Assembly (NCBI RefSeq): GCF_044324785.1
Contig: NZ_CP172127.1
From: Escherichia coli
GTDB lineage: Bacteria > Pseudomonadota > Gammaproteobacteria > Enterobacterales > Enterobacteriaceae
DNA: 64,000 nt
Direction: 5' to 3' (one strand)
Under the pieces are notes generated by a model. It did no database searches and was not told the origin of the DNA. It was given only the letters and a program-made list of their open reading frames with translations. Positions 1-61,512 of the stretch are shown here, piece after piece. A program made the translations under genes and the position numbers. The number at the start of each line of letters is the position of its first letter. Positions within the stretch are counted from its first letter, which is position 1.

Positions 1-357
1 CGCAAAGGCTTTTTGCGCCCGCTCATAAAACGCAAAACGATTGATGCGGATGATGTCAGGACAGGGGGCTTGTAGTGAAAGCGCATTACGATAACGTCGT
101 TCTACTTCAGGATCGAGAGTGTCACCTTCTACCGCCGCCATCATCACCAGCGGCGGTGCATAACTGTCCAGTTCAAATAACGGGATTATCGCCTGGAGCA
201 AGTCGCTCACCAACAGGCCATCAGCGCGGATCACCTGCGGTCCCATCGAATGGGCGGGAAAGTGAGCATCGGAAAAAATAATTTCATCTCCATGTCCCAT
301 CTCTGCCAGCACTTTCAATAGTTCGGGAGAAATTAACGGCGAAATTGTTTTCAGCAT
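1..357 (-). CDS. fucU: L-fucose mutarotase FucU, partial (C-terminal end runs off the window)
   Basis: Reverse complement of 301-357 translates [19 protein letters not shown]..., the FucU N-terminus; ATG (rc) at 355-357 just downstream of the fucK stop; absent from the ORF track because it is truncated by the window edge. Confidence 0.8.
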
Positions 358-358
358 T

Positions 359-1807
359 TCACACTTCCTCTATAAATTCAGGTTCAGTTTGCGGGTAGAA
401 ATAACGGTACTGATAATGAATCTGTGCACGGGCTTCTTCCGGGCTGTTAAATTCCCCTACGCCATACCAACCGAACAGCGCAGCTCCTGCGACGGTCGTT
501 TCGGCATCGTCGAGAACTTTTACCGGAATATCAAGCATATTGGCTTTAATCTGATTCCACAATGTGTTGCGACTTCCTCCGCCGACTAACAATAATTCAG
601 AGGCTTTAAAGTGCCCGATTTTTTCCAGCATCTGTAGATTGCGCTGTAATTGCGCAGTTAACCCTTCCAGCGCCGCGCGATAGAAATGCCCCCGCGTGGT
701 ATTAAGCGTCACTCCTTGCCAGCCAGCGTTCTGACACGACAATAAATCACACTGCATTTTCACACCATCCGCGCCAGGTGCGATCAGACGAGCCTCTTCA
801 ATCAACATTTGCCAGGGAGTTTCAGCCGTCCAGAACAGCTTTCTCACCCATTCCAGCACGCCGGATGCCAGCCATTGCATACCTGGGTTATACAACCCTG
901 CCTGACTATCCAGTTCGCAGGTCGAACCGGCGTACTGACTTAACAGCGAAGTATCAACCTGGGCGCTACGGACCATTAAAATTTCCCATGTACCGGAAGA
1001 GAGCACGGGTTCATTTTGTTCGGCACCAGCGCCAAAAAGGGCGAACTGGGTATCGTGACCTGCGGAAATCACCGGTATGCCAACGGGTAAGCCGAGCATT
1101 CCTGCGGCGCTGTTCTGTAACGTACCAATCTGTTCACCCGCTTCCACCAGACGAGGGAAGAGTCGGCGTGGAATACCGGTGGCTTGTAAAATTTGCGGAC
1201 TGAAATCGCGTTGCTGGATATCCAGCATCTGGCTGGTTCCGGCCATCGTGATATCAGTAGTGAATTCGCCGGTTAAACGGTGGTTAATCAGCGACGAAAT
1301 AAACAGCCAGGCGTGCGCGCGTTCCAGCAGTTGTGGATGATTTTCTTTCAACCACACCAACTTATATAACGTATTGAAACTAAAGGCTCCGACGCCAGAA
1401 ATAGCCTGCAACTGCTGTGCGGAGATCAACCGTTCAATATTGTCCATTACCGCTGCTGTTCGCGGACATTTCCAGCTAATGATCGGATAGAGCAGATTGC
1501 CTTGCTTATCTACCAGAGCGCCATCCACACCAAAGGTGGTGACGGCGATACCGCGGATGTGGCATTCAGTCAGCTTACTATTGATTTGCCGACAGCAATC
1601 AGCAAAGCGTTGCAAAATGGCGTCTAAAGACCACTGGTGCCAGGTGTTGTTTTCCATCGCGATATCGCTGGCATTAGGCGTTGAGGCGCGGGCAACAATT
1701 TTTCCCTGCCGATTAACCGCGATGGCCCTGACATTGGTCGCGCCACAGTCGAGTACCAGGATAACTTCTTGTTTCATAATCGCTCCTGCAATATAGCCGG
1801 ATAACAT
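359..1807 (-). CDS. fucK: L-fuculokinase
   Basis: 482-aa ORF; FGGY kinase sequence with the FucK N-terminus [21 protein letters not shown]; position in fucPIKU operon. Confidence 0.93.
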
Positions 1808-1885
1808 TGCTTATCCGGCTAACCACTCTTGCTTGTTCAGGCCCGGTAGCCGGAGCGACCGGGCATCACATCAGGGAGTAATGTA

Positions 1886-3661
1886 TTAACGCTTGTACAA
1901 CGGGCCGTAGTTCTGGCAAGCGCGGTAATCCTGGCCTTCAATATCCATGCCGTGCGCGGCCCAGGCAGAAGGACGATACACTTTGGTCTCTTCAACGTTG
2001 TGCATACATACCGGGATACGCAGCATGGAGGCAAGAGTGATAAAGTCTGCGCCAACGTGGCCGATGGTCAGAACCCCGTGGTTAGCGCCCCAGTTCGCCA
2101 TTACCGAGTACACATCCGTAAACGGCCCTTTACCGGTGAGGCGCGGTGCAAACCAGGTGGTTGGCCAGGTTGAGTTGGTGCGTTTGTTGAGGATGTCATG
2201 CACATCCTTCGGCAATTCCACGCTCCAGCCTTCCGCGATTTGCAGTACCGGTCCCAGGCCTTTGATGATGTTGACACGAGTCATGGTGAACGGGACGCCG
2301 CCTTCGGTAAGGAAGCGGGAAGAGTAACCGCCGCCACGGAAGTATTCGTGGATCGCCGGGCACCATTCGGTAGCGGCGAGGCAAGCGTCAGCCTCTTGCT
2401 GAGAGATTTCCCAGTGCGGCTTCATCGTCGGGTTACCTTCGCTGTCGCGTTGTTTACAGGAACCGTCCAGCGCAGCAGAACCTGAGTTGATCAAATGGAT
2501 GATGCCGTGTTCTGCCAGTCCGTCCAGTTTATGCCCCGTTACACGCTCAATTGCTTCTGGTGACCAGTAGGTACGCACATCGGCAAATACCTGAGCGGTG
2601 CCGGTGAGCTGGTGACCCATTAGCATTGCCACGCCGTTAAGACTGTCGTTTTCGGTCGCCACGACAAAGGGTTCGCGCACGCCATTCCAGTCAAATGAAC
2701 TGTTGAGGATCGCTTCGGCGGTGTCACCATTGGGATATTGATCGGTCCAGTGACGTTGTCCCTGGAAGCCCGCAGCGATGGCGTTGTAGCCAAGTGATTC
2801 TTCCACGCGACCAATATCGGCCAGTTTGCTGTTGCCTTGCATCATGTCGCGGATACACATCGCCATCAGTAAACTTTCGCGCAGAACTGCGCGGCTTTGC
2901 TCGGCATTGCGTTGATACTGTTTGTTATTTTCATCTTCGCCATAGCGGAAGTTTTTATCAGCCCAGGCCAGCGCCATTTCCAGTTCGGCTTCGTCGTAAA
3001 TCTTCTGATCGATACGGCGACGCAGTTCGGTCATATCCACCGCCTGGACTTTCATTCCCAGCCAGGATTCAAAGAAGTTGTGATCAACAATGGAACCGGC
3101 GATACCCATCGAAACGCCGCCCAGCGACAGATAGCTTTTACCTTTCATGCTGGCGACTGCTAAACCGGCGCGGGCAAAGCGCAGCAGTTTTTCTTCAACA
3201 TCGGCAGGAATCGATGTGTCATCGGCATCCTGAACATCATGACCGTAAATGGAGAATGCCGGGATGCCTTTCTGGCTGTGAGCTGCCAGAGCCGCTGCCA
3301 GGTAAACAGCGCCGGGACGTTCAGTGCCGTTAAAGCCCCAAATGGCTTTCGGGCGGGTTGGATCCATGTCGATGGTTTCACTGCCATAGCACCAGCAAGG
3401 CGTTACCGTAATGGTGAGGCCTACATTCTGACTGCTGAATTTTTCTTCGCAAGCAGCGGCTTCAGCCATACCCGCGATACAGGTATCGGAAATGACACAC
3501 TCGACGGCAGCTCCGCAGGCATGGCGCAGTTTCTCGGTCAGCAGTGCAGCCGTGGCTTTCGCCATATTCATTGTTTGTTCTTCAAGCGACTCACGAACAC
3601 CCATGCGACGACCGTCAATAACCGGGCGGATACCAATTTTCGGTAAGCTGATTTTTTTCAT
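1886..3661 (-). CDS. fucI: L-fucose isomerase
   Basis: 591-aa [22 protein letters not shown]...; length and sequence match FucI; operon context. Confidence 0.95.
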
Positions 3662-14727: not shown

Positions 14728-15086
14728 GGAGTCAGACAACGAAGTGAACATCAGGATGATGACACTTCTGAAGGACACACCAAGATGGTGTTTCAGGGAA
14801 AGGCTTCTGGATGAAGCGAAGAGGATGACGCAGGACGCGTTAAAGGACACCTCCAGGATGGAGAATGAGAACCAGTCAGGATGATTCGGTGGGTCAGGAA
14901 GGCCAGGGACACTTCAGGATGAAGTATCACATCGGGGTGGTGTGAGCAGGAAGCAATAGTTCAGGATGAACGATTGGCCGCAAGGCCAGAGGAAAAGTTG
15001 TCAAGGATGAGCAGGGAGCAACAAAAGTAGCTGGAATGCTGCGAAACGAACCGGGAGCACTGTGAATACAGTGCTCCCTTTTTTTA
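14728..15086 (+). ncRNA. csrB: CsrB small RNA (CsrA-sequestering sRNA)
   Basis: About 360-nt non-coding stretch between syd and yqcC densely packed with CAGGA(U)G / AGGA motifs (caggatga, aaggacac, caggatgg, tcaggatg, caaggatg ...), ending in the GC hairpin gggagcactgtgaatacagtgctccc + T8; sequence matches K-12 CsrB as recalled. Confidence 0.9.
15053..15086 (+). terminator. Rho-independent terminator of csrB
   Basis: Perfect 10-bp stem gggagcactg/cagtgctccc with a 6-nt loop followed by TTTTTTTT. Confidence 0.9.
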
Positions 15087-15130
15087 TTCCTGCTATCCTT
15101 CGCGGCAGTTTTTCTTATTGAGGTTGCTTT

Positions 15131-46890: not shown

Positions 46891-48690
46891 ATGACGACAC
46901 AGGCCCCACCTTCCGCGTTGCTTCCGTTGAACCCGGAGCAACTGGCACGCCTTCAGGCGGCCACGACCGATTTAACTCCCACCCAGCTTGCCTGGGTTTC
47001 TGGCTATTTCTGGGGCGTGCTCAACCAGCAGCCTGCTGCGCTTGCAGCGACGCCAGCGCCCGCCGCAGAAATGCCGGGTATAACTATTATCTCCGCCTCG
47101 CAAACCGGCAATGCGCGCCGGGTTGCTGAAGCATTACGCGATGATTTATTGGCGGCAAAACTGAACGTTAAGCTGGTGAACGCGGGCGACTATAAATTCA
47201 AACAAATCGCCAGCGAAAAACTGCTCATCGTGGTGACGTCAACGCAAGGGGAAGGGGAACCGCCGGAAGAAGCCGTCGCGCTGCATAAGTTCCTGTTCTC
47301 CAAAAAAGCGCCAAAGCTGGAAAACACCGCGTTTGCCGTGTTTAGCCTCGGCGATAGCTCTTATGAATTTTTCTGCCAGTCCGGGAAAGATTTTGACAGC
47401 AAGCTGGCGGAACTGGGCGGTGAACGCCTGCTCGACCGTGTCGATGCCGACGTTGAATACCAGACCGCTGCCAGCGAGTGGCGCGCCCGCGTGGTTGATG
47501 TTCTGAAGTCCCGTGCGCCTGTCGCGGCACCTTCGCAATCCGTCGCTACTGGCGCGGTAAATGAAATCCACACCAGCCCGTACAGCAAAGACGCGCCGCT
47601 GGTGGCGAGCCTTTCGGTTAACCAGAAAATTACCGGGCGTAACTCTGAAAAAGACGTTCGCCATATCGAAATTGACTTAGGTGACTCTGGCCTGCGTTAT
47701 CAGCCGGGTGACGCGCTGGGCATCTGGTATCAGAACGATCCGGCACTGGTGAAAGAACTTGTCGAACTGCTGTGGCTGAAAGGCGATGAAACTGTCACCG
47801 TTGACGGCAAAACGCTGACCCTGAGCGAAGCGCTACAGTGGCACTTTGAACTCACCGTCAACACCGCGAATATTGTTGAGAACTACGCCACGCTTACCCG
47901 CAGCGAAACGCTGCTGCCGCTGGTGGGCGATAAAGCGAAGTTACAGCATTACGCCGCGACCACGCCGATTGTTGACATGGTGCGTTTCTCTCCGGCGCAA
48001 CTGGATGCCGAAGCGCTGATTAACCTGCTGCGCCCGCTGACCCCGCGTCTGTATTCCATCGCCTCCTCGCAGGCGGAAGTCGAGAACGAAGTACACGTTA
48101 CCGTTGGTGTGGTGCGTTACGACGTGGAAGGCCGCGCCCGTGCCGGTGGTGCCTCCAGTTTCCTCGCGGACCGTGTGGAAGAAGAGGGCGAAGTCCGCGT
48201 CTTTATCGAACATAACGATAACTTCCGCCTGCCAGCCAATCCGGAAACCCCGGTGATTATGATTGGCCCAGGCACCGGCATCGCGCCGTTCCGCGCCTTT
48301 ATGCAGCAACGCGCCGCCGACGAAGCGCTGGGGAAAAACTGGCTGTTCTTTGGCAACCCGCACTTTACGGAAGATTTCCTCTACCAGGTGGAATGGCAGC
48401 GCTACGTCAAAGAGGGCGTGCTGACGCGTATCGATCTTGCCTGGTCGCGCGATCAAAAAGAAAAAATTTACGTACAAGACAAACTGCGCGAACAGGGCGC
48501 GGAGCTATGGCGCTGGATCAATGACGGTGCCCACATTTATGTCTGCGGCGACGCTAATCGCATGGCGAAAGACGTTGAGCAGGCACTTCTGGAAGTGATT
48601 GCCGAATTTGGTGGCATGGACACCGAAGCGGCGGATGAATTTTTAAGTGAGCTGCGCGTAGAGCGCCGTTATCAGCGAGATGTCTACTAA
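46891..48690 (+). CDS. cysJ: Sulfite reductase [NADPH] flavoprotein alpha-component
   Basis: 599-aa [45 protein letters not shown]... ending ...ERRYQRDVY. Confidence 0.96.
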
Positions 48691-50402
48691 TGAGCGAAAA
48701 ACATCCAGGGCCTTTAGTGGTCGAAGGAAAACTGACAGACGCCGAGCGCATGAAGCTTGAAAGCAACTACCTGCGCGGCACCATTGCGGAAGATTTAAAC
48801 GACGGTCTGACCGGCGGCTTTAAGGGCGACAACTTCCTGCTGATCCGCTTCCACGGCATGTATCAGCAAGATGACCGCGACATCCGCGCCGAACGTGCTG
48901 AACAGAAGCTGGAGCCACGTCATGCAATGCTGTTGCGCTGTCGTCTGCCGGGTGGGGTGATTACCACCAAACAGTGGCAGGCGATCGATAAATTTGCCGG
49001 TGAAAACACCATCTATGGCAGCATTCGCCTGACCAACCGCCAGACGTTTCAGTTCCACGGCATTCTGAAAAAGAACGTCAAACCGGTGCACCAGATGCTG
49101 CACTCGGTCGGTCTTGATGCGCTGGCGACTGCTAACGACATGAACCGTAACGTACTCTGCACCTCGAACCCTTACGAGTCGCAGCTGCACGCGGAAGCCT
49201 ATGAATGGGCGAAGAAAATCTCTGAACATCTGCTGCCTCGTACCCGCGCGTATGCAGAGATCTGGCTCGATCAGGAAAAAGTCGCCACTACTGATGAAGA
49301 GCCGATCCTTGGTCAGACCTACCTGCCGCGTAAGTTCAAAACCACGGTAGTGATCCCGCCGCAGAACGATATCGATCTGCACGCCAACGACATGAACTTC
49401 GTGGCGATCGCCGAAAACGGCAAGCTGGTGGGCTTTAACCTGCTGGTGGGCGGTGGGCTTTCCATCGAGCACGGCAACAAGAAAACCTACGCCCGCACCG
49501 CGAGTGAGTTTGGCTATCTGCCGCTGGAGCATACACTGGCAGTGGCGGAAGCCGTCGTGACAACTCAGCGTGACTGGGGTAACCGAACCGATCGTAAAAA
49601 TGCCAAAACCAAATACACGCTGGAGCGCGTGGGGGTTGAGACGTTTAAAGCGGAAGTGGAGCGTCGCGCGGGGATCAAATTTGAACCGATCCGTCCGTAT
49701 GAGTTCACCGGACGCGGCGATCGTATTGGTTGGGTTAAGGGCATTGATGATAACTGGCACCTGACGCTGTTTATCGAAAATGGTCGCATCCTTGATTATC
49801 CGGGGCGTCCGCTGAAAACTGGCCTGCTGGAGATCGCGAAGATCCACAAAGGTGATTTCCGCATTACGGCGAACCAGAATCTGATCATCGCCGGTGTGCC
49901 GGAAAGCGAGAAAGCGAAGATCGAGAAGATCGCCAAAGAGAGCGGGTTAATGAATGCCGTCACGCCGCAGCGTGAAAACTCAATGGCCTGCGTGTCATTC
50001 CCGACTTGCCCGCTGGCGATGGCCGAAGCCGAGCGTTTCCTGCCGTCTTTTATCGACAACATCGATAATTTAATGGCGAAACATGGTGTCAGCGATGAGC
50101 ATATCGTGATGCGTGTAACAGGCTGCCCGAACGGTTGTGGTCGCGCGATGCTGGCGGAAGTGGGCCTGGTGGGTAAAGCGCCGGGTCGCTACAACCTACA
50201 TCTTGGCGGCAACCGCATTGGGACACGTATCCCACGGATGTATAAAGAAAACATCACCGAGCCGGAAATCCTGGCGTCGCTTGATGAACTGATAGGGCGC
50301 TGGGCGAAAGAGCGCGAAGCGGGTGAAGGCTTCGGCGACTTTACGGTGCGTGCGGGCATCATTCGCCCGGTGCTCGATCCGGCGCGCGATTTGTGGGATT
50401 AA
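48690..50402 (+). CDS. cysI: Sulfite reductase [NADPH] hemoprotein beta-component
   Basis: 570-aa [39 protein letters not shown]...; start overlaps the cysJ stop. Confidence 0.96.
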
Positions 50403-50418
50403 CCATCAGCCCGGTCTT

Positions 50419-50455
50419 GTAGGCCTGATAAGACGCGTGAGCGTCGCATCAGGCA
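50419..50455. repeat. REP element
   Basis: gtaggcctgataagacgcgtgagcgtcgcatcaggca palindromic unit in the cysI-cysH gap. Confidence 0.7.
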
Positions 50456-50475
50456 AGGCAAACAGTGAGGAATCT

Positions 50476-51210
50476 ATGTCCAAACTCGATCTAAACGCCC
50501 TGAACGAACTGCCGAAGGTAGATCGCATTCTGGCGCTTGCAGAAACTAACGCCGAACTGGAAAAACTGGATGCTGAAGGCCGCGTTGCCTGGGCGCTGGA
50601 TAATCTGCCCGGTGAATATGTACTTTCTTCCAGTTTCGGCATTCAGGCGGCGGTGAGCCTGCATCTGGTGAATCAGATTCACCCGGATATCCCGGTGATC
50701 CTGACCGATACGGGTTATCTGTTCCCGGAAACCTACCGCTTTATTGACGTGTTAACGGACAAACTCAAGCTCAACCTGAAAGTGTACCGAGCTACCGAAA
50801 GCGCCGCCTGGCAGGAAGCACGCTACGGCAAACTGTGGGAGCAGGGCGTTGAAGGCATTGAAAAGTACAATGACATCAACAAAGTCGAACCGATGAACCG
50901 GGCGCTGAAAGAACTGAATGCGCAAACGTGGTTTGCTGGCCTGCGCCGCGAACAATCCGGCAGTCGCGCCAATTTACCGGTGCTGGCAATTCAGCGTGGC
51001 GTATTTAAAGTGCTGCCGATTATCGACTGGGATAACCGAACGATATATCAGTATCTGCAAAAACATGGCCTGAAATATCATCCATTATGGGACGAAGGAT
51101 ATTTATCCGTCGGTGATACCCATACAACCCGTAAATGGGAACCCGGCATGGCGGAAGAAGAAACGCGTTTCTTTGGCTTAAAAAGGGAATGTGGGCTGCA
51201 CGAAGGGTAA
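50476..51210 (+). CDS. cysH: Phosphoadenosine phosphosulfate (PAPS) reductase
   Basis: ORF 50323-51210; start at the ATG giving [31 protein letters not shown]... (244 aa); upstream in-frame extension runs through the REP and is not credible. Confidence 0.94.
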
Positions 51211-51474
51211 ATATTGCCGGATAAATTAAACGCCTCTGTCAGAAATGATGGGGGCGTTTTTATTTTGCGAGCAGCATTCCGGCATTTAAAGGTGAACATC
51301 GCAGGGAGAATTAACAGGTATAGAATGGAGTTGGGTGCTTGAGGCTGTCTGGCGTTAAGCATTCGCGAGGTTCCAGATGGACAAAAGCCCCAGGCGATAT
51401 TTCTATCAACCTGAGGCCAGCGTTCGAACCTAAGCAATTCGAATGTTAGTCTCTTCTTTGCAGGGAGGCAAGAC

Positions 51475-51627
51475 ATGCTGACAAAATATGCCCTTGTGGC
51501 AATCATCGTACTGTGTTGTACAGTACTGGGATTCACGCTGATGGTAGGCGACTCGTTGTGTGAGTTGAGTATCAGAGAACGTGGTATGGAGTTTAAGGCA
51601 GTTCTCGCTTACGAATCGAAGAAGTAG
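51475..51627 (+). CDS. Hok/Gef-family type I toxin (small membrane peptide)
   Basis: 50-codon [53 protein letters not shown] preceded by SD gggagg; N-terminal TM helix, LCE motif and C-terminal AYES motif as in Hok/HokC(Gef) (MK...LCE...AYES); not in the supplied ORF track (below its length cut-off); corresponds to the position where K-12 carries a sok-like sRNA annotation (recalled). Confidence 0.75.
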
Positions 51628-51821
51628 CCACCACGCGGGGGTAAAACCCCGCGTACTGAATTGTGATGGTTTGGTCTCCTGCACCCTTTTTTAATTTATA
51701 TTGTTTATGTGAATATTATGCCTATGTTTATTATTCATATATATTACGGATGAAAATTATTTGATTATTCATAATGTAAATATTTTATTGAACGATATAT
51801 ATCACAGATAATTTTTAATAT

Positions 51822-54521
51822 ATGCGTAAATATCCTTTAAGTTTACTGAAGGATAAAAATATTGTGACTTTTTTTGATTTCTGGGGAAAAACCCGACGCG
51901 GCGAGAAAGACGGGGGCGACGACTATCACCTTCTTTGCTGGCATTCGCTGGATGTAGCCGCGATGGGCTATTTAATGGTTAAAAGCAATTGCTTCGGGCT
52001 GGCTGACTATTTTCGTCAACTAGGTTTCGCTGATACGGAGCAGGCAGCACAATTTTTCGCCTGGCTATTGTGCTGGCACGATACTGGAAAATTTGCCCGC
52101 TCTTTTCAGCAACTTTACCTGCACCCGCAACTCAAGGTTCCGGAAAGCTCTAGAAAAAATTACGAAAAAATCTCTCATTCAACGCTGGGTTACTGGTTGT
52201 GGCACCATTATTTAAGTGAATGCGAAGAATTGCTTCCTGCATCTTCACTCTCTCCGCGCAAGCTCAAACGGGTAATAGATATGTGGATGCCCATAACTAC
52301 CGGGCATCATGGTCGGCCTCCTGACCGTATGGATGAACTGGACAACTTTCTGCCTGAAGACAAAGCTGCCGCACGAGATTTTCTCCTTGCAATCAAGGCA
52401 CTGTTTCCGCTCATAGAGATCCCCACATTCTGGGATGATGACGAGGGCGTTGAACTCATAAAACAACTTTCCTGGTATATCTCTGCAACCGTCGTACTCG
52501 CAGACTGGACGGGATCGTCAGCGCGATTTTTTCCACGCGTCGCGCAGGCAATGGATATTGAAGATTACTGGCAGAAGGCTTTAGTTCAGGCTCAAAACGC
52601 ATTAACCGTCTTTCCTCCAAAAGCACAAACCGCGCCTTTCACCGGAATTAATACGCTGTTTCCTTTTATTGAGCACTCGACACCGTTACAGCAAAAGGTG
52701 CTGGATCTGGATATCAGCCAGCCTGGGCCACAGTTATTTATTCTGGAGGATGTGACTGGCGCAGGTAAAACAGAAGCGGCGCTTATCCTGGCCCACAGGT
52801 TGATGGCTGCGGGGAAAGCACAGGGTTTGTTTTTTGGCCTGCCAACAATGGCAACGGCCAATGCCATGTACGATCGGCTGGTCAAAACCTGGCTTGCTTT
52901 CTATTCGCCACAATCCCGCCCCAGCCTGGTGCTGGCACACAGTGCCCGCACATTAATGGATCGCTTTAATGAATCACTCTGGTCCGGTGATTTAGTCGGG
53001 TCAGAAGAACCGGATGAACAAACGTTCAGTCAGGGATGTGCGGCCTGGTTTGCCGACAGTAACAAGAAGGCGTTGCTGGCTGAAATTGGCGTCGGCACTT
53101 TGGATCAGGCGATGATGGCGGTGATGCCGTTCAAACATAATAATCTGCGGCTTCTGGGGCTGAGTAATAAAATCCTGCTGGCTGATGAGATCCACGCCTG
53201 TGACGCTTACATGTCATGCATTCTTGAAGGGCTGATCGAGCGGCAGGCGCGTGGCGGAAACAGCGTCATTTTGCTTTCTGCCACGTTATCTCAACAGCAG
53301 CGCGACAAACTCGTTGCTGCCTTTGCGCGTGGTACAGAGGGCCAGCAAGAAGCTCCGTTCCTGGAAAAGGATGATTACCCCTGGCTGACGCACGTTACGA
53401 AATCCGATGTGCATTCACACCGGGTAGCGACGCGCAAAGACGTTGAGCGTAGCGTGAGCGTGGGTTGGCTTCATAGCGAACAAGAATGTATTGCGCGTAT
53501 CGAATCGGCAGTAAGTCAGGGGAAATGCATCGCCTGGATCCGGAATTCTGTCGATGACGCTATTAAGGTTTATCGTCAGTTGCTTGCCCGCGGCGTCATT
53601 CCTGCTTCCAGCCTTTCTCTGTTTCATAGCCGCTTTGCTTTTAGCGATCGCCAGCGAATTGAAACGGAAACGCTGGCACGCTTCGGTAAAAGTTGTAGTT
53701 TACAGAGATCATCGCAAGTCATTGTTTGTACACAAGTAATTGAACAAAGTGTGGATATTGACCTGGACGAAATGATATCCGACCTGGCCCCTGTTGATTT
53801 GCTGATCCAACGGGCGGGGCGATTACAGCGGCATATCCGCGATATTAATGGTCAGTTAAAGCGTGACGGAAAAGACGAGCGTTCCCCTCCTGAATTGCTG
53901 ATTCTGGCCCCCGTCTGGGACGACGCTCCAGGTGACGAATGGTTCGGCAGTGCCATGCGTAACAGTGCATATGTCTATCCCGATCATGGACGAATCTGGC
54001 TGACGCAGCGTGTACTGCGTGAGCAAGGCGCTATTCAAATGCCACACGCAGCCCGCCTTCTTATTGAATCAGTCTACGGTGAGGACGTGGTAATGCCGGA
54101 AGGATTTGCCCGCAGCGAGCAGGAACAAGTGGGCAAATATTACTGCGATCGCGCAATGGCTAAAAAGTTTGTGCTGAACTTCAGGCCCGGCTATGCCGCC
54201 AATATCAACGATTACCTCCCGGAAAAACTGTCGACACGTCTGTCTGAGGAGTCTGTTTCCCTGTGGCTGTCTACCTGTATTGCCGGTGTGGTAAAGCCTT
54301 ATGCCAACGGTGCTCACGCATGGGAAATGAGCGTTGTCAGAGTGCGTCGAAGCTGGTGGAAAAAACATCGCGATGAGTTTTCTTTACTGGAAGGGGATGC
54401 GTTCAGACAGTGGTGCGTTGAACAGCGGCAAGATCCGGAGATGGCAAATGTGATTTTAGTTACCGATGACGAAAGTTGCGGGTATTCGGCTACGGAGGGA
54501 TTGATAGGTAAGGTTGATTGA
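51822..54521 (+). CDS. cas3: Cas3 helicase-nuclease (type I-E)
   Basis: 899-aa ORF with HD nuclease N-terminal region (HSLDVA...), DEAD-like helicase Walker A (EDVTGAGKTEAA) and DExH box (LLADEIHACD); an alternative GTG start at 51864 is possible. Confidence 0.93.
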   Translation: MRKYPLSLLKDKNIVTFFDFWGKTRRGEKDGGDDYHLLCWHSLDVAAMGYLMVKSNCFGLADYFRQLGFADTEQAAQFFAWLLCWHDTGKFARSFQQLYLHPQLKVPESSRKNYEKISHSTLGYWLWHHYLSECEELLPASSLSPRKLKRVIDMWMPITTGHHGRPPDRMDELDNFLPEDKAAARDFLLAIKALFPLIEIPTFWDDDEGVELIKQLSWYISATVVLADWTGSSARFFPRVAQAMDIEDYWQKALVQAQNALTVFPPKAQTAPFTGINTLFPFIEHSTPLQQKVLDLDISQPGPQLFILEDVTGAGKTEAALILAHRLMAAGKAQGLFFGLPTMATANAMYDRLVKTWLAFYSPQSRPSLVLAHSARTLMDRFNESLWSGDLVGSEEPDEQTFSQGCAAWFADSNKKALLAEIGVGTLDQAMMAVMPFKHNNLRLLGLSNKILLADEIHACDAYMSCILEGLIERQARGGNSVILLSATLSQQQRDKLVAAFARGTEGQQEAPFLEKDDYPWLTHVTKSDVHSHRVATRKDVERSVSVGWLHSEQECIARIESAVSQGKCIAWIRNSVDDAIKVYRQLLARGVIPASSLSLFHSRFAFSDRQRIETETLARFGKSCSLQRSSQVIVCTQVIEQSVDIDLDEMISDLAPVDLLIQRAGRLQRHIRDINGQLKRDGKDERSPPELLILAPVWDDAPGDEWFGSAMRNSAYVYPDHGRIWLTQRVLREQGAIQMPHAARLLIESVYGEDVVMPEGFARSEQEQVGKYYCDRAMAKKFVLNFRPGYAANINDYLPEKLSTRLSEESVSLWLSTCIAGVVKPYANGAHAWEMSVVRVRRSWWKKHRDEFSLLEGDAFRQWCVEQRQDPEMANVILVTDDESCGYSATEGLIGKVD

Positions 54522-54547
54522 GATGCCCTGGCGTCGGATGACGCCAG

Positions 54548-54576
54548 GGCTTATCCCCGCTGACGCGGGGAACAGG
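54548..54576 (-). repeat. Solitary CRISPR-repeat-like sequence in inverted orientation downstream of cas3
   Basis: Minus-strand reading cctgttccccgcgtcagcggggataagcc matches the array repeat at 25 of 27 aligned positions; immediately preceded by a second perfect hairpin gccctggcgtc-ggat-gacgccagggc (54525-54550). Confidence 0.8.
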
Positions 54577-54950
54577 AGCATAAAATGATATACGTGTATC
54601 ACTAACTTGGTTAATCCCTTAGACAGGGAACTGAAGACGTTTATATCAAAAATAAGGGTTATTCGAAATAAAGAAAATCTCTAAGAGTTATTGATATACG
54701 TAACAATGTCCGGAAGCAGAGTTGAAAAACCTTTTGATAAAGAATACTTTGGTTTTTATTAAGTGATAGAGCCTGAGCGAAAAGGATTATAGAAAATTAT
54801 CTTTATATATTCGTGTGATTTATTGATTATTTAATAATAATCTAATTTTCAATATATTCATTTAATATGATGTAATCTCTCTTTTCGATTGATTCTTGAA
54901 TATGGTGATGGACAACCTACCATGGATGGTCTTATTTGCGAGGAAAGCGT
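54577..54950 (+). promoter_or_regulatory. cas3-cse1 intergenic region, expected Cascade operon promoter (Pcas; H-NS/LeuO-controlled in K-12)
   Basis: About 370 bp of strongly AT-rich non-coding DNA upstream of cse1 with a good RBS (gagga) before the ATG at 54951; promoter elements not mapped. Confidence 0.5.
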
Positions 54951-56513: not shown

Positions 56514-58116
<1,603 letters not shown>

Positions 58117-60715: not shown

Positions 60716-60811
60716 GTTATCCGTTCTTTAAAAATAAGGAAATGTTTTAATTTAGTTGGTAGATTGTTGATGCGGAATAAATTTGTTTAAAAACAGTTAT
60801 GTATGCTTAGT
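60716..60811 (+). promoter_or_regulatory. CRISPR leader (array at 60812-61512)
   Basis: AT-rich 96 bp between the cas2 stop and the first repeat (…ggaaatgttttaatttagttggtagattgttgatgcggaataaatttgtttaaaaacagttatgtatgcttagt). Confidence 0.75.
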
Positions 60812-61512
60812 GTGTTCCCCGCGCCAGCGGGGATAAACCGTTTCACCGTCGTTCCGTCCGCGCGCTTAGCCTGTGTTCCCCGCGCCAGCGGGGATAAACC
60901 GATTGCGCGGACCGGGCCAGCGCGTCGATTTCTGTGTTCCCCGCGCCAGCGGGGATAAACCGGTGACGACGATCCCAACGCTGCAAAAGGTTAAGTGTTC
61001 CCCGCGCCAGCGGGGATAAACCGCCGTGCTCAATTCAACACCCGACACTGCGCGAGTGTTCCCCGCGCCAGCGGGGATAAACCGTTGTAATTTTGTTCAG
61101 TCTGGCCCATAGCGCGCGTGTTCCCCGCGCCAGCGGGGATAAACCGTTTTGTGAGTATCTTATTTGTCTGGCTCGGTGGTGTTCCCCGCGCCAGCGGGGA
61201 TAAACCGATCTGTTTGCAGATCAACAGGCCCGTAAGGACGTGTTCCCCGCGCCAGCGGGGATAAACCGATAACGCCCGCGCGATCTGGATTATCAGTTAC
61301 GTGTTCCCCGCGCCAGCGGGGATAAACCGCCCGACGGCAGTCGGAGATTAACTATATATGTGTGTTCCCCGCGCCAGCGGGGATAAACCGGGTAAAAACA
61401 CGGTCTGAACCGACATTCATGTGTGTTCCCCGCGTCAGCGGGGATAAACCGGACGCACTGGATGCGATGATGGATATCACTTAGAATTCCCCGCCCCTGC
61501 GGTAGAACTCGC
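60812..61512 (+). CRISPR. Type I-E CRISPR array, 12 repeats (11 canonical 29-bp GTGTTCCCCGCGCCAGCGGGGATAAACCG plus 1 degenerate terminal), 11 spacers of 32-33 bp
   Basis: Repeats start at 60812, 60873, 60934, 60995, 61056, 61118, 61179, 61240, 61301, 61362, 61423 (gcgTcagc variant) and degenerate 61484 (gaattccccgcccctgcggtagaactcgc). Confidence 0.97.

Follow-up and report, generated by a model that had tools for sequence, protein, structure and literature searches.

A chromosomal hokX/sokX type I toxin-antitoxin locus, probably complete, between cysH and cas3 in an Escherichia coli genome

Main finding

The intergenic region between cysH and cas3 in the stretch of Escherichia coli DNA analysed here (64,000 nt of contig NZ_CP172127.1, hereafter the window) very probably holds the chromosomal type I toxin-antitoxin locus hokX/sokX (HokG), complete and free of insertion sequences. 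This locus is already named, annotated and surveyed, it is the majority state in E. coli, and its intact reading frame is not notable. A type I toxin-antitoxin module of the textbook kind, it is of little importance apart from correct annotation, and the single mechanistic question around it is how hokX is translated without a canonical mok.

Layout of the region and its neighbours

According to the list of open reading frames (ORFs) in the window and an annotated relative, cysI occupies 48690-50402, cysH ends at 51210 and a cas3 gene of 899 amino acids starts at 51822, which leaves a gap of 611 nt. A terminator scan predicted an intrinsic terminator for cysH at 51228-51259 on the plus strand, with a 14-bp stem followed by a T-run, and the hok transcript downstream of it should therefore be a unit of its own, separate from cysJIH. 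The 3' end of this transcript would lie 130 nt from the start of cas3. Many short ORFs overlap the intergenic region on both strands. One of them, a GTG-initiated ORF of 152 amino acids on the minus strand (51078-51536), spans the end of cysH, the entire hok leader and the start of hok; its overlap with the cysH terminator and with a conserved structured RNA makes it most likely a spurious frame, which automatic gene callers could pick up.

Elsewhere in the window, a full-length CsrB sRNA gene is located at 14729-15088 on the plus strand (Rfam RF00018, 375 bits). A short type I-E CRISPR array with a period of 61 and about 6-7 repeats of GTGTTCCCCGCGCCAGCGGGGATAAACCG lies between cas2 and iap (60811-61268) and is split into two blocks by Tandem Repeats Finder. 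The cas7e gene (casC, 57061-58116) carries an in-frame TAA at 57307-57309 where strain N3 has GAA (E83*), the rest of the frame being intact, and owing to this nonsense codon Cascade is probably non-functional though all cas genes are present.

The hokX toxin gene and its product

The hokX toxin ORF (51475-51627, plus strand) encodes 50 amino acids, and a GGAGG Shine-Dalgarno sequence (51464-51468) can be read 6 nt 5' of its ATG. An earlier note on this DNA had described a 50-codon ORF with a strong Shine-Dalgarno sequence in the cysH-cas3 gap and had assigned it to the Hok family; the exact sequence was recovered and the assignment holds. The protein matches Pfam PF01848 (HOK_GEF) with an E-value of 6.3e-10 and 38.9 bits, far beyond chance, residues 5-46 covering model positions 1-42 of 42, and it is identical to an annotated Hok/Gef protein. 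The family traits named in that note are likewise present, namely the N-terminal transmembrane helix (one is predicted at residues 6-24, where the 19-residue Kyte-Doolittle value reaches its maximum of 2.76), the LCE motif and a C-terminal motif of the AYES type, AYE(S/P). In an alignment with the K-12 paralogues, LCE is common to HokE, HokC and HokA and AYE to HokE and HokC, while identity amounts to 39/50 residues for HokE, 24/50 for HokA, 19/51 for HokC and 16/50 for HokB. HokX scores under the curated cut-offs of both the NCBIfam HokA equivalog (NF007290; 53 bits versus 89) and the NCBIfam Hok subfamily (NF007279; 39.5 bits versus 73), so that it is a member of the Hok family but not HokA.

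The identical RefSeq protein, WP_000956458.1, is named only 'Hok/Gef family protein' and is present in strain N3, O157:H7, O111, 97-3250, MS8345 and others. An exact-sequence look-up found it on at least 1000 contigs, under names that include UniProt HOKG_ECO57 'Putative protein HokG'. The intergenic region of strain N3 is 100% identical over 620 nt and the ORF is annotated there between cysH and cas3; over 48211-54830 there are 129 differences between the window and N3, and more further downstream.

We scanned one genome per species with a 20-base leader motif, which returned 30 stretches, 19 of them with HokX-type genes. These belong to Escherichia spp., Pseudocitrobacter, Kluyvera, Pluralibacter, Atlantibacter, Pseudescherichia, Klebsiella and Enterobacter, and cysH lies directly upstream in 12 of the 19, a synteny seen in Escherichia spp., Pseudocitrobacter, Kluyvera, Pluralibacter and Atlantibacter. 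The earlier note had raised the point of whether the ORF is conserved at orthologous loci, and the ungapped 50-codon frame is indeed kept in 19/19 orthologues. Variable columns fall on codon positions 1, 2 and 3 in the numbers 22/7/40, pairwise dN/dS against the window ranges from 0.04 to 0.19 wherever a comparison contains a non-synonymous change, and the hokX of three close Escherichia relatives departs from that of the window by 3-4 synonymous and zero non-synonymous changes. Purifying selection on HokX in several genera argues that the protein is produced and has a function. In several Escherichia genomes, two loci of the hokE or hokB type stand in tandem at a distance of about 500 bp, with their ORFs intact.

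The literature that we searched yielded no experimental test of HokX toxicity or of the hokX transcript, and a search on 'hokG' returned almost only unrelated papers. An EHEC RNA-seq table gives low reads for 'sok_15/sokX', listed there as 152 nt.

The hok mRNA and its fold

A covariance-model search, which had been suggested together with the Hok assignment, gave a match to Rfam RF01794 at 51333-51490 on the plus strand, covering the full model (1-157) with 111.7 bits against a gathering score of 59 (E-value 1.4e-24). The model follows the hok-sense strand and stops at the hok AUG, and thus describes the leader of the hok mRNA and not the antisense RNA. RF01794 is named 'sok antitoxin', and annotation derived from Rfam can put 'sok' on the wrong strand at a length of about 150 nt; a plus-strand hit to this model must not be taken as the antitoxin gene. 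The match begins with the sequence ggtgcttgaggctgtctggcg (51334-51354), 141 nt before the ATG, and this is the hok-like 5' motif that the earlier note had placed about 140 nt upstream of the ORF.

The full-length hokX mRNA would extend over about 360 nt from 51333 to 51692 on the plus strand, including the leader, the ORF, the 3' UTR and a T-run. At its 5' end stands the tac element GGGUGC UU GAGG (51333-51344), which pairs with 51675-51686 of the fbi element GGUCUC CU GCACCC (51673-51686, GGTCTCCTGCACCC). The minimum free energy fold of 51333-51694 (z-score -2.97) joins 51333-51338 to 51681-51686 and 51341-51344 to 51675-51678. The same pairs recur, as helices 1 and 2 with 98% paired, in the RNAalifold consensus of an alignment of the window and 19 orthologues (20 sequences), and the long folded hok transcript that had been proposed for the locus is thus found in both kinds of prediction. 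The first 11 bases (51333-51343) do not vary among the 20 orthologues, of which at least 90% also have G51344. The tac/fbi helices are conserved but show no covariation, since their changes are only one-sided, from G-C to G-U, with no double changes.

Over the whole consensus structure of the 20 orthologues, 97.2% of cells are paired. Sixteen pairs have changes on both sides, compared with 9.0+-1.7 in 500 shuffles, none of which reaches 16, and no more than 6 with slid partners, in a test that used a structure derived from the same alignment. A long-range helix, consensus helix 6 with 97% of cells paired, joins an upstream arm GUCUCUUCUUUG (51449-51460), which resembles the complementary boxes of hok mRNA, to a downstream arm CGAAGAAGUAGC (51617-51628) at the end of the hok ORF. 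In the consensus fold, pairing of 51464-51470 with 51476-51482 forms a small hairpin that hides both the Shine-Dalgarno sequence and the start codon of hok. The consensus also keeps a 5' hairpin, a hairpin at 51420-51446 and a GC hairpin in the 3' UTR, and the Sok-target hairpin (51387-51417) is invariant among the 20 sequences.

The GC hairpin (51633-51654, GGGG-N6-CCCC) has an 8-bp stem (51633-51640 with 51647-51654) and the loop GTAAAA, and as helix 14 it is nearly invariant in the consensus fold. It is a conserved structural element of the hokX 3' UTR and a recurrent IS186/IS421 target. The earlier note had reported a GC hairpin followed by a T-run, of which the hairpin stands, while the T-run does not follow it: the run lies 32 nt further on (51687-51692), directly behind GGTCTCCTGCACCC, where it would form the 3' end of the transcript and may serve in termination. 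The hairpin was accordingly rejected as a hairpin-plus-T terminator.

The SokX antisense RNA and the promoters

By homology to K-12, the cis-encoded antisense RNA SokX is placed across the hok leader on the minus strand, with its 5' end near 51435 and its 3' end near 51377, as the earlier note had anticipated for a Sok RNA. The K-12 ncRNA sokX (b4701, 59 nt) matches the complement of 51377-51435 at 57/59 positions. The predicted fold of SokX has a free energy of -22.7 kcal/mol (z-score -3.57), with a hairpin and then UUUUG at the 3' end. Relative to K-12 sokX, which on the sense strand has C at 51431 and A at 51434, the window allele has T and G. These polymorphic positions lie in a hairpin loop and also in the 5' tail of SokX, and O157:H7-type alleles have a 1-nt deletion around 51431-51434.

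When 51150-51900 was scanned against the promoter consensus, no hit at the threshold of 9/12 corresponded to the hok or the sok promoter; the one 9/12 match, unrelated and inside the ORF, compares with 2.1 expected by chance. Reading by eye and comparison with paralogues were therefore used to place both promoters. For sokX, the probable -10 element is TAACAT (51443-51448, minus strand), 7 nt upstream of the mapped SokX 5' end, and the probable -35 element is TTGCCT (51466-51471, minus strand), which is separated from it by a 17-nt spacer and overlaps the hok Shine-Dalgarno sequence. This -35 element is retained in K-12, in which the homology runs to 51477, and is identical in hokE. For hok, the probable -10 element is TAGAAT (51321-51326, plus strand), 6 nt before the putative transcript start; no -35 element could be recognised upstream of it when the sequence was read, and the promoter is likely to be weak. 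At the same distance before GGGTGC, hokC of K-12 has TATAAT, hokE TAAGAT and hokB TAGGAT.

We infer the following mode of action, in which promoters, transcript ends, 3' processing, the trigger of hok translation and toxicity are all conditional. [quoted passage not shown] By analogy with R1 hok, slow trimming of the 3' end would open this fold (PMC9841398). The opened RNA would be bound by the short and unstable SokX (minus strand, about 51435 to 51377) and destroyed, or translated if SokX were absent. The product would be a 50-amino-acid single-pass peptide of the inner membrane that depolarises and kills or arrests the cell.

Translation of hokX and the absence of a canonical mok

Translation of hok in R1 depends on ribosomes reading the overlapping mok frame to the hok Shine-Dalgarno sequence or beyond (PMC9841398). 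The mokC and mokB frames of K-12 have their start codons beside GAGG in the hairpin's 5' arm, some 57 nt before hok. The context of the mok ATG is GTATGAAC in mokB, mokC and the Kluyvera and Klebsiella orthologues, compared with GTTCGAAC in the window, and the canonical start position itself reads GTTCGAACC in the window, as opposed to CGAATGAACC in hokB, with some Kluyvera and Klebsiella orthologues keeping GTATGAACC. Given this TCG where hokB and others have ATG, the window lacks a canonical mok start codon.

Two other frames were considered and rejected. An in-frame N-terminal extension of hok fails in the window, as there is no start codon in frame between the stop at 51412-51414 and the ATG at 51475. 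An ORF from ATG 51377, which has a Shine-Dalgarno sequence (GAGG, 51367-51370), was discarded as mok because this ATG is AAA or ATA in 11/19 orthologues; it is missing from all Kluyvera, Atlantibacter, Klebsiella, Pluralibacter, Pseudescherichia and Enterobacter loci and from Escherichia sp. ESNIH1. The length of this ORF is 18 codons in the window versus 34 in K-12-type alleles, owing to the T/C polymorphism at 51431, which makes a codon TAA in the window and CAA in the others.

There is a further leader ORF (51443-51481, plus strand) that we regard, tentatively, as a candidate substitute for mok. It has an ATG and 12 codons, and its TGA overlaps hok codons 2-3 (ATGCTGA), so that ribosomes translating it would pass over the hok Shine-Dalgarno sequence, in keeping with the requirement known from R1. 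In 19/20 loci (the window and 18/19 orthologues), a frame that extends to the hok start begins with an ATG at -32/-33, and it comes in three forms: a 12-codon ORF whose TGA or TAA lies over hok codons 2-3, an extension of hok at its N-terminus, in frame and with a spacer 1 nt longer, a form that hokE and mokC also have, and a 32-codon overlapping frame in Atlantibacter. The start codon at 51443 lies in a stem, lacks a Shine-Dalgarno sequence and falls on the complement of the sok -10 element (TAACAT); since the same bases make up this -10, its conservation is not independent evidence for translation. With such a start, and with the canonical mok missing, translation of hok could be weak or absent.

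It is conceivable, though we would rate it as somewhat improbable, that the hokX/hokE branch of Escherichia has lost the classical mok and replaced it with the 12-codon leader ORF, which starts in the sokX -10 element and stops over the hok start. Toxin translation would then depend on coupling through termination-reinitiation, and the action of SokX would not involve covering a mok ribosome-binding site. Were this reading true, it would amount to a variant of hok control and not to a new system.

A rival that we consider unlikely is that hokX is a silenced relic, untranslated in Escherichia since the canonical mok start was lost, and that it persists for the sake of SokX or by inertia. The replacement of the 5'-arm mok ATG in the window and the lack of a Shine-Dalgarno sequence at ATG 51443 would fit such a history, as would the tolerance of K-12 for SokX alone and the chromosomal hok loci of K-12, which an AIEC study reports to be inactivated and which are flanked by IS elements. 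Against it, comparisons of the window with eight Escherichia and Pseudocitrobacter loci that have lost this ATG too give about 33 synonymous versus 8 non-synonymous changes, these comparisons being non-independent, and the hok Shine-Dalgarno sequence, the start codon and all regulatory helices are conserved. An ORF that reaches the hok start is moreover kept in 18/19 orthologues, and the R1 data show that a mok this short suffices (PMC9841398).

Distribution of the locus and its relation to CRISPR-Cas

Matches to the transcript query occur in 5415 of 5426 complete E. coli genomes, and in 4146 of these 5415 (about 77%) the match covers 80% or more of the transcript. Among rows sampled at even spacing, all that reach this coverage are annotated 'Hok/Gef family protein', 8 of 40 are K-12-like and cover only the first 145 nt of the transcript, and a further class covers only transcript positions 1-317. 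The earlier note had held an intact toxin frame at this site to be notable, and this is not the case for a state so widespread, already named and annotated and published in 2014. In a survey of UPEC, 90% of strains had hok together with sokX beside cysH and the others, like MG1655, had sokX only; Almendros et al. (2014) described hok-sok at the CRISPR-I locus in all E. coli except strains with E2 (K-12-type) cas genes. Only K-12-type strains being without the toxin gene, the complete hokX/sokX of the window is ordinary. A sixth hok, located at the cysH-iap region and homologous to the hokX of E. coli B, is also described in the AIEC study.

At the cysH-cas3 site it is K-12 that forms the exception, with an orphan sokX. 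The statement that K-12 annotates only a sok-like RNA here was confirmed, as MG1655 has the ncRNA sokX alone (b4701, 2887353-2887411), transcribed in the opposite direction to cysH and cas3. The K-12 sequence follows the window collinearly from cysH as far as the hok ATG (51477) inclusive and then switches abruptly to its own cas3 upstream sequence. From the end of homology at 51477 it follows that K-12 keeps the hok promoter, the leader and sokX with its promoter and has lost the toxin ORF and the 3' UTR.

Insertions at the GC hairpin were seen in the class that covers only transcript positions 1-317. In E. coli B (T7 Express) and CB209, homology ends at 51649, in the 3' arm of the hairpin, and the gene of an IS4-family IS421 transposase comes next. 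The IS421/IS186-family insertions of the two strains have opposite orientations, which suggests that they are independent. IS186 is found just past the equivalent hairpin of both hokE and hokC in K-12. This element prefers GGGG(N6-7)CCCC targets, which fits the hokX hairpin, and as an IS186/IS421 target the 3'-UTR hairpin took part in remodelling the adjacent CRISPR-Cas locus.

A search of a plasmid collection found no close plasmid copy of HokX, true plasmid Hok-family genes being about 42-61% identical. The sole plasmid match of 100%, PLSDB NZ_CP141089.1, is 4.94 Mb long and evidently a chromosome filed as a plasmid, and a plasmid origin of hokX was rejected.

That hokX/sokX is tied to CRISPR-Cas, either as an addiction cassette that stabilises cas-E or as a regulator or insulator of the cas3 promoter, seems to us very improbable. 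The locus does stand immediately upstream of cas3, with its 3' end 130 nt from the cas3 start, and the presence of hok-sok correlates with the cas-E variant (Almendros et al., 2014). The identical protein and locus, however, also occur in strains that have no cas genes and in which iap follows directly, so that the locus does not depend on CRISPR-Cas. The synteny with cysH in other genera likewise speaks against such a tie, as do the scenario published in 2014, which treats hok-sok as a passive marker of module exchange, and the nonsense codon in cas7e, with which Cascade in the window is probably already defective. As for a chance ORF, the mere 50 codons and the many short ORFs that overlap the region on both strands could suggest one, but the idea has no standing beside the Pfam E-value of 6.3e-10, the exact match to annotated proteins, a dN/dS of about 0.1 and the Rfam match of the leader.

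Comparison with known hok/sok systems

Among known systems, the orphan sokX locus of K-12 is identical or nearly so to the window over 51211-51477, and differs in lacking the hok ORF, the GC hairpin and fbi, which are replaced by a K-12-type cas3 upstream region. The closest K-12 paralogue is hokE/sokE, which has a homologous leader and the sok promoter layout TTGCCT-17-TACCAT, and in hokE as in hokX the 5'-arm mok ATG is absent. It differs in its chromosomal site (ybdK-entD) and, in K-12, in an IS186 just downstream, and its upstream ATG is in frame with hok because its spacer is 4 nt longer than that of hokX.

The hok/sok (parB) system of R1 shares with hokX the PF01848 and RF01794 families, the tac/fbi fold-back and the logic of antisense control. 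At the protein level, the plasmid-borne Hok-family genes are only about 42-43% identical to HokX, and R1 has a 70-codon mok with its own Shine-Dalgarno sequence (PMC9841398) that is absent at hokX. Because the locus is chromosomal and syntenic across genera, post-segregational killing is not an obvious role of hokX.

The nearest relative is the hokX/sokX of E. coli as already described, with the same protein, the same position (cysH-cas3 or cysH-iap), the same leader and the same antisense sokX. The window copy is without an IS element, unlike hokX of E. coli B, and nothing substantial distinguishes it from the hokX/sokX known from this species.
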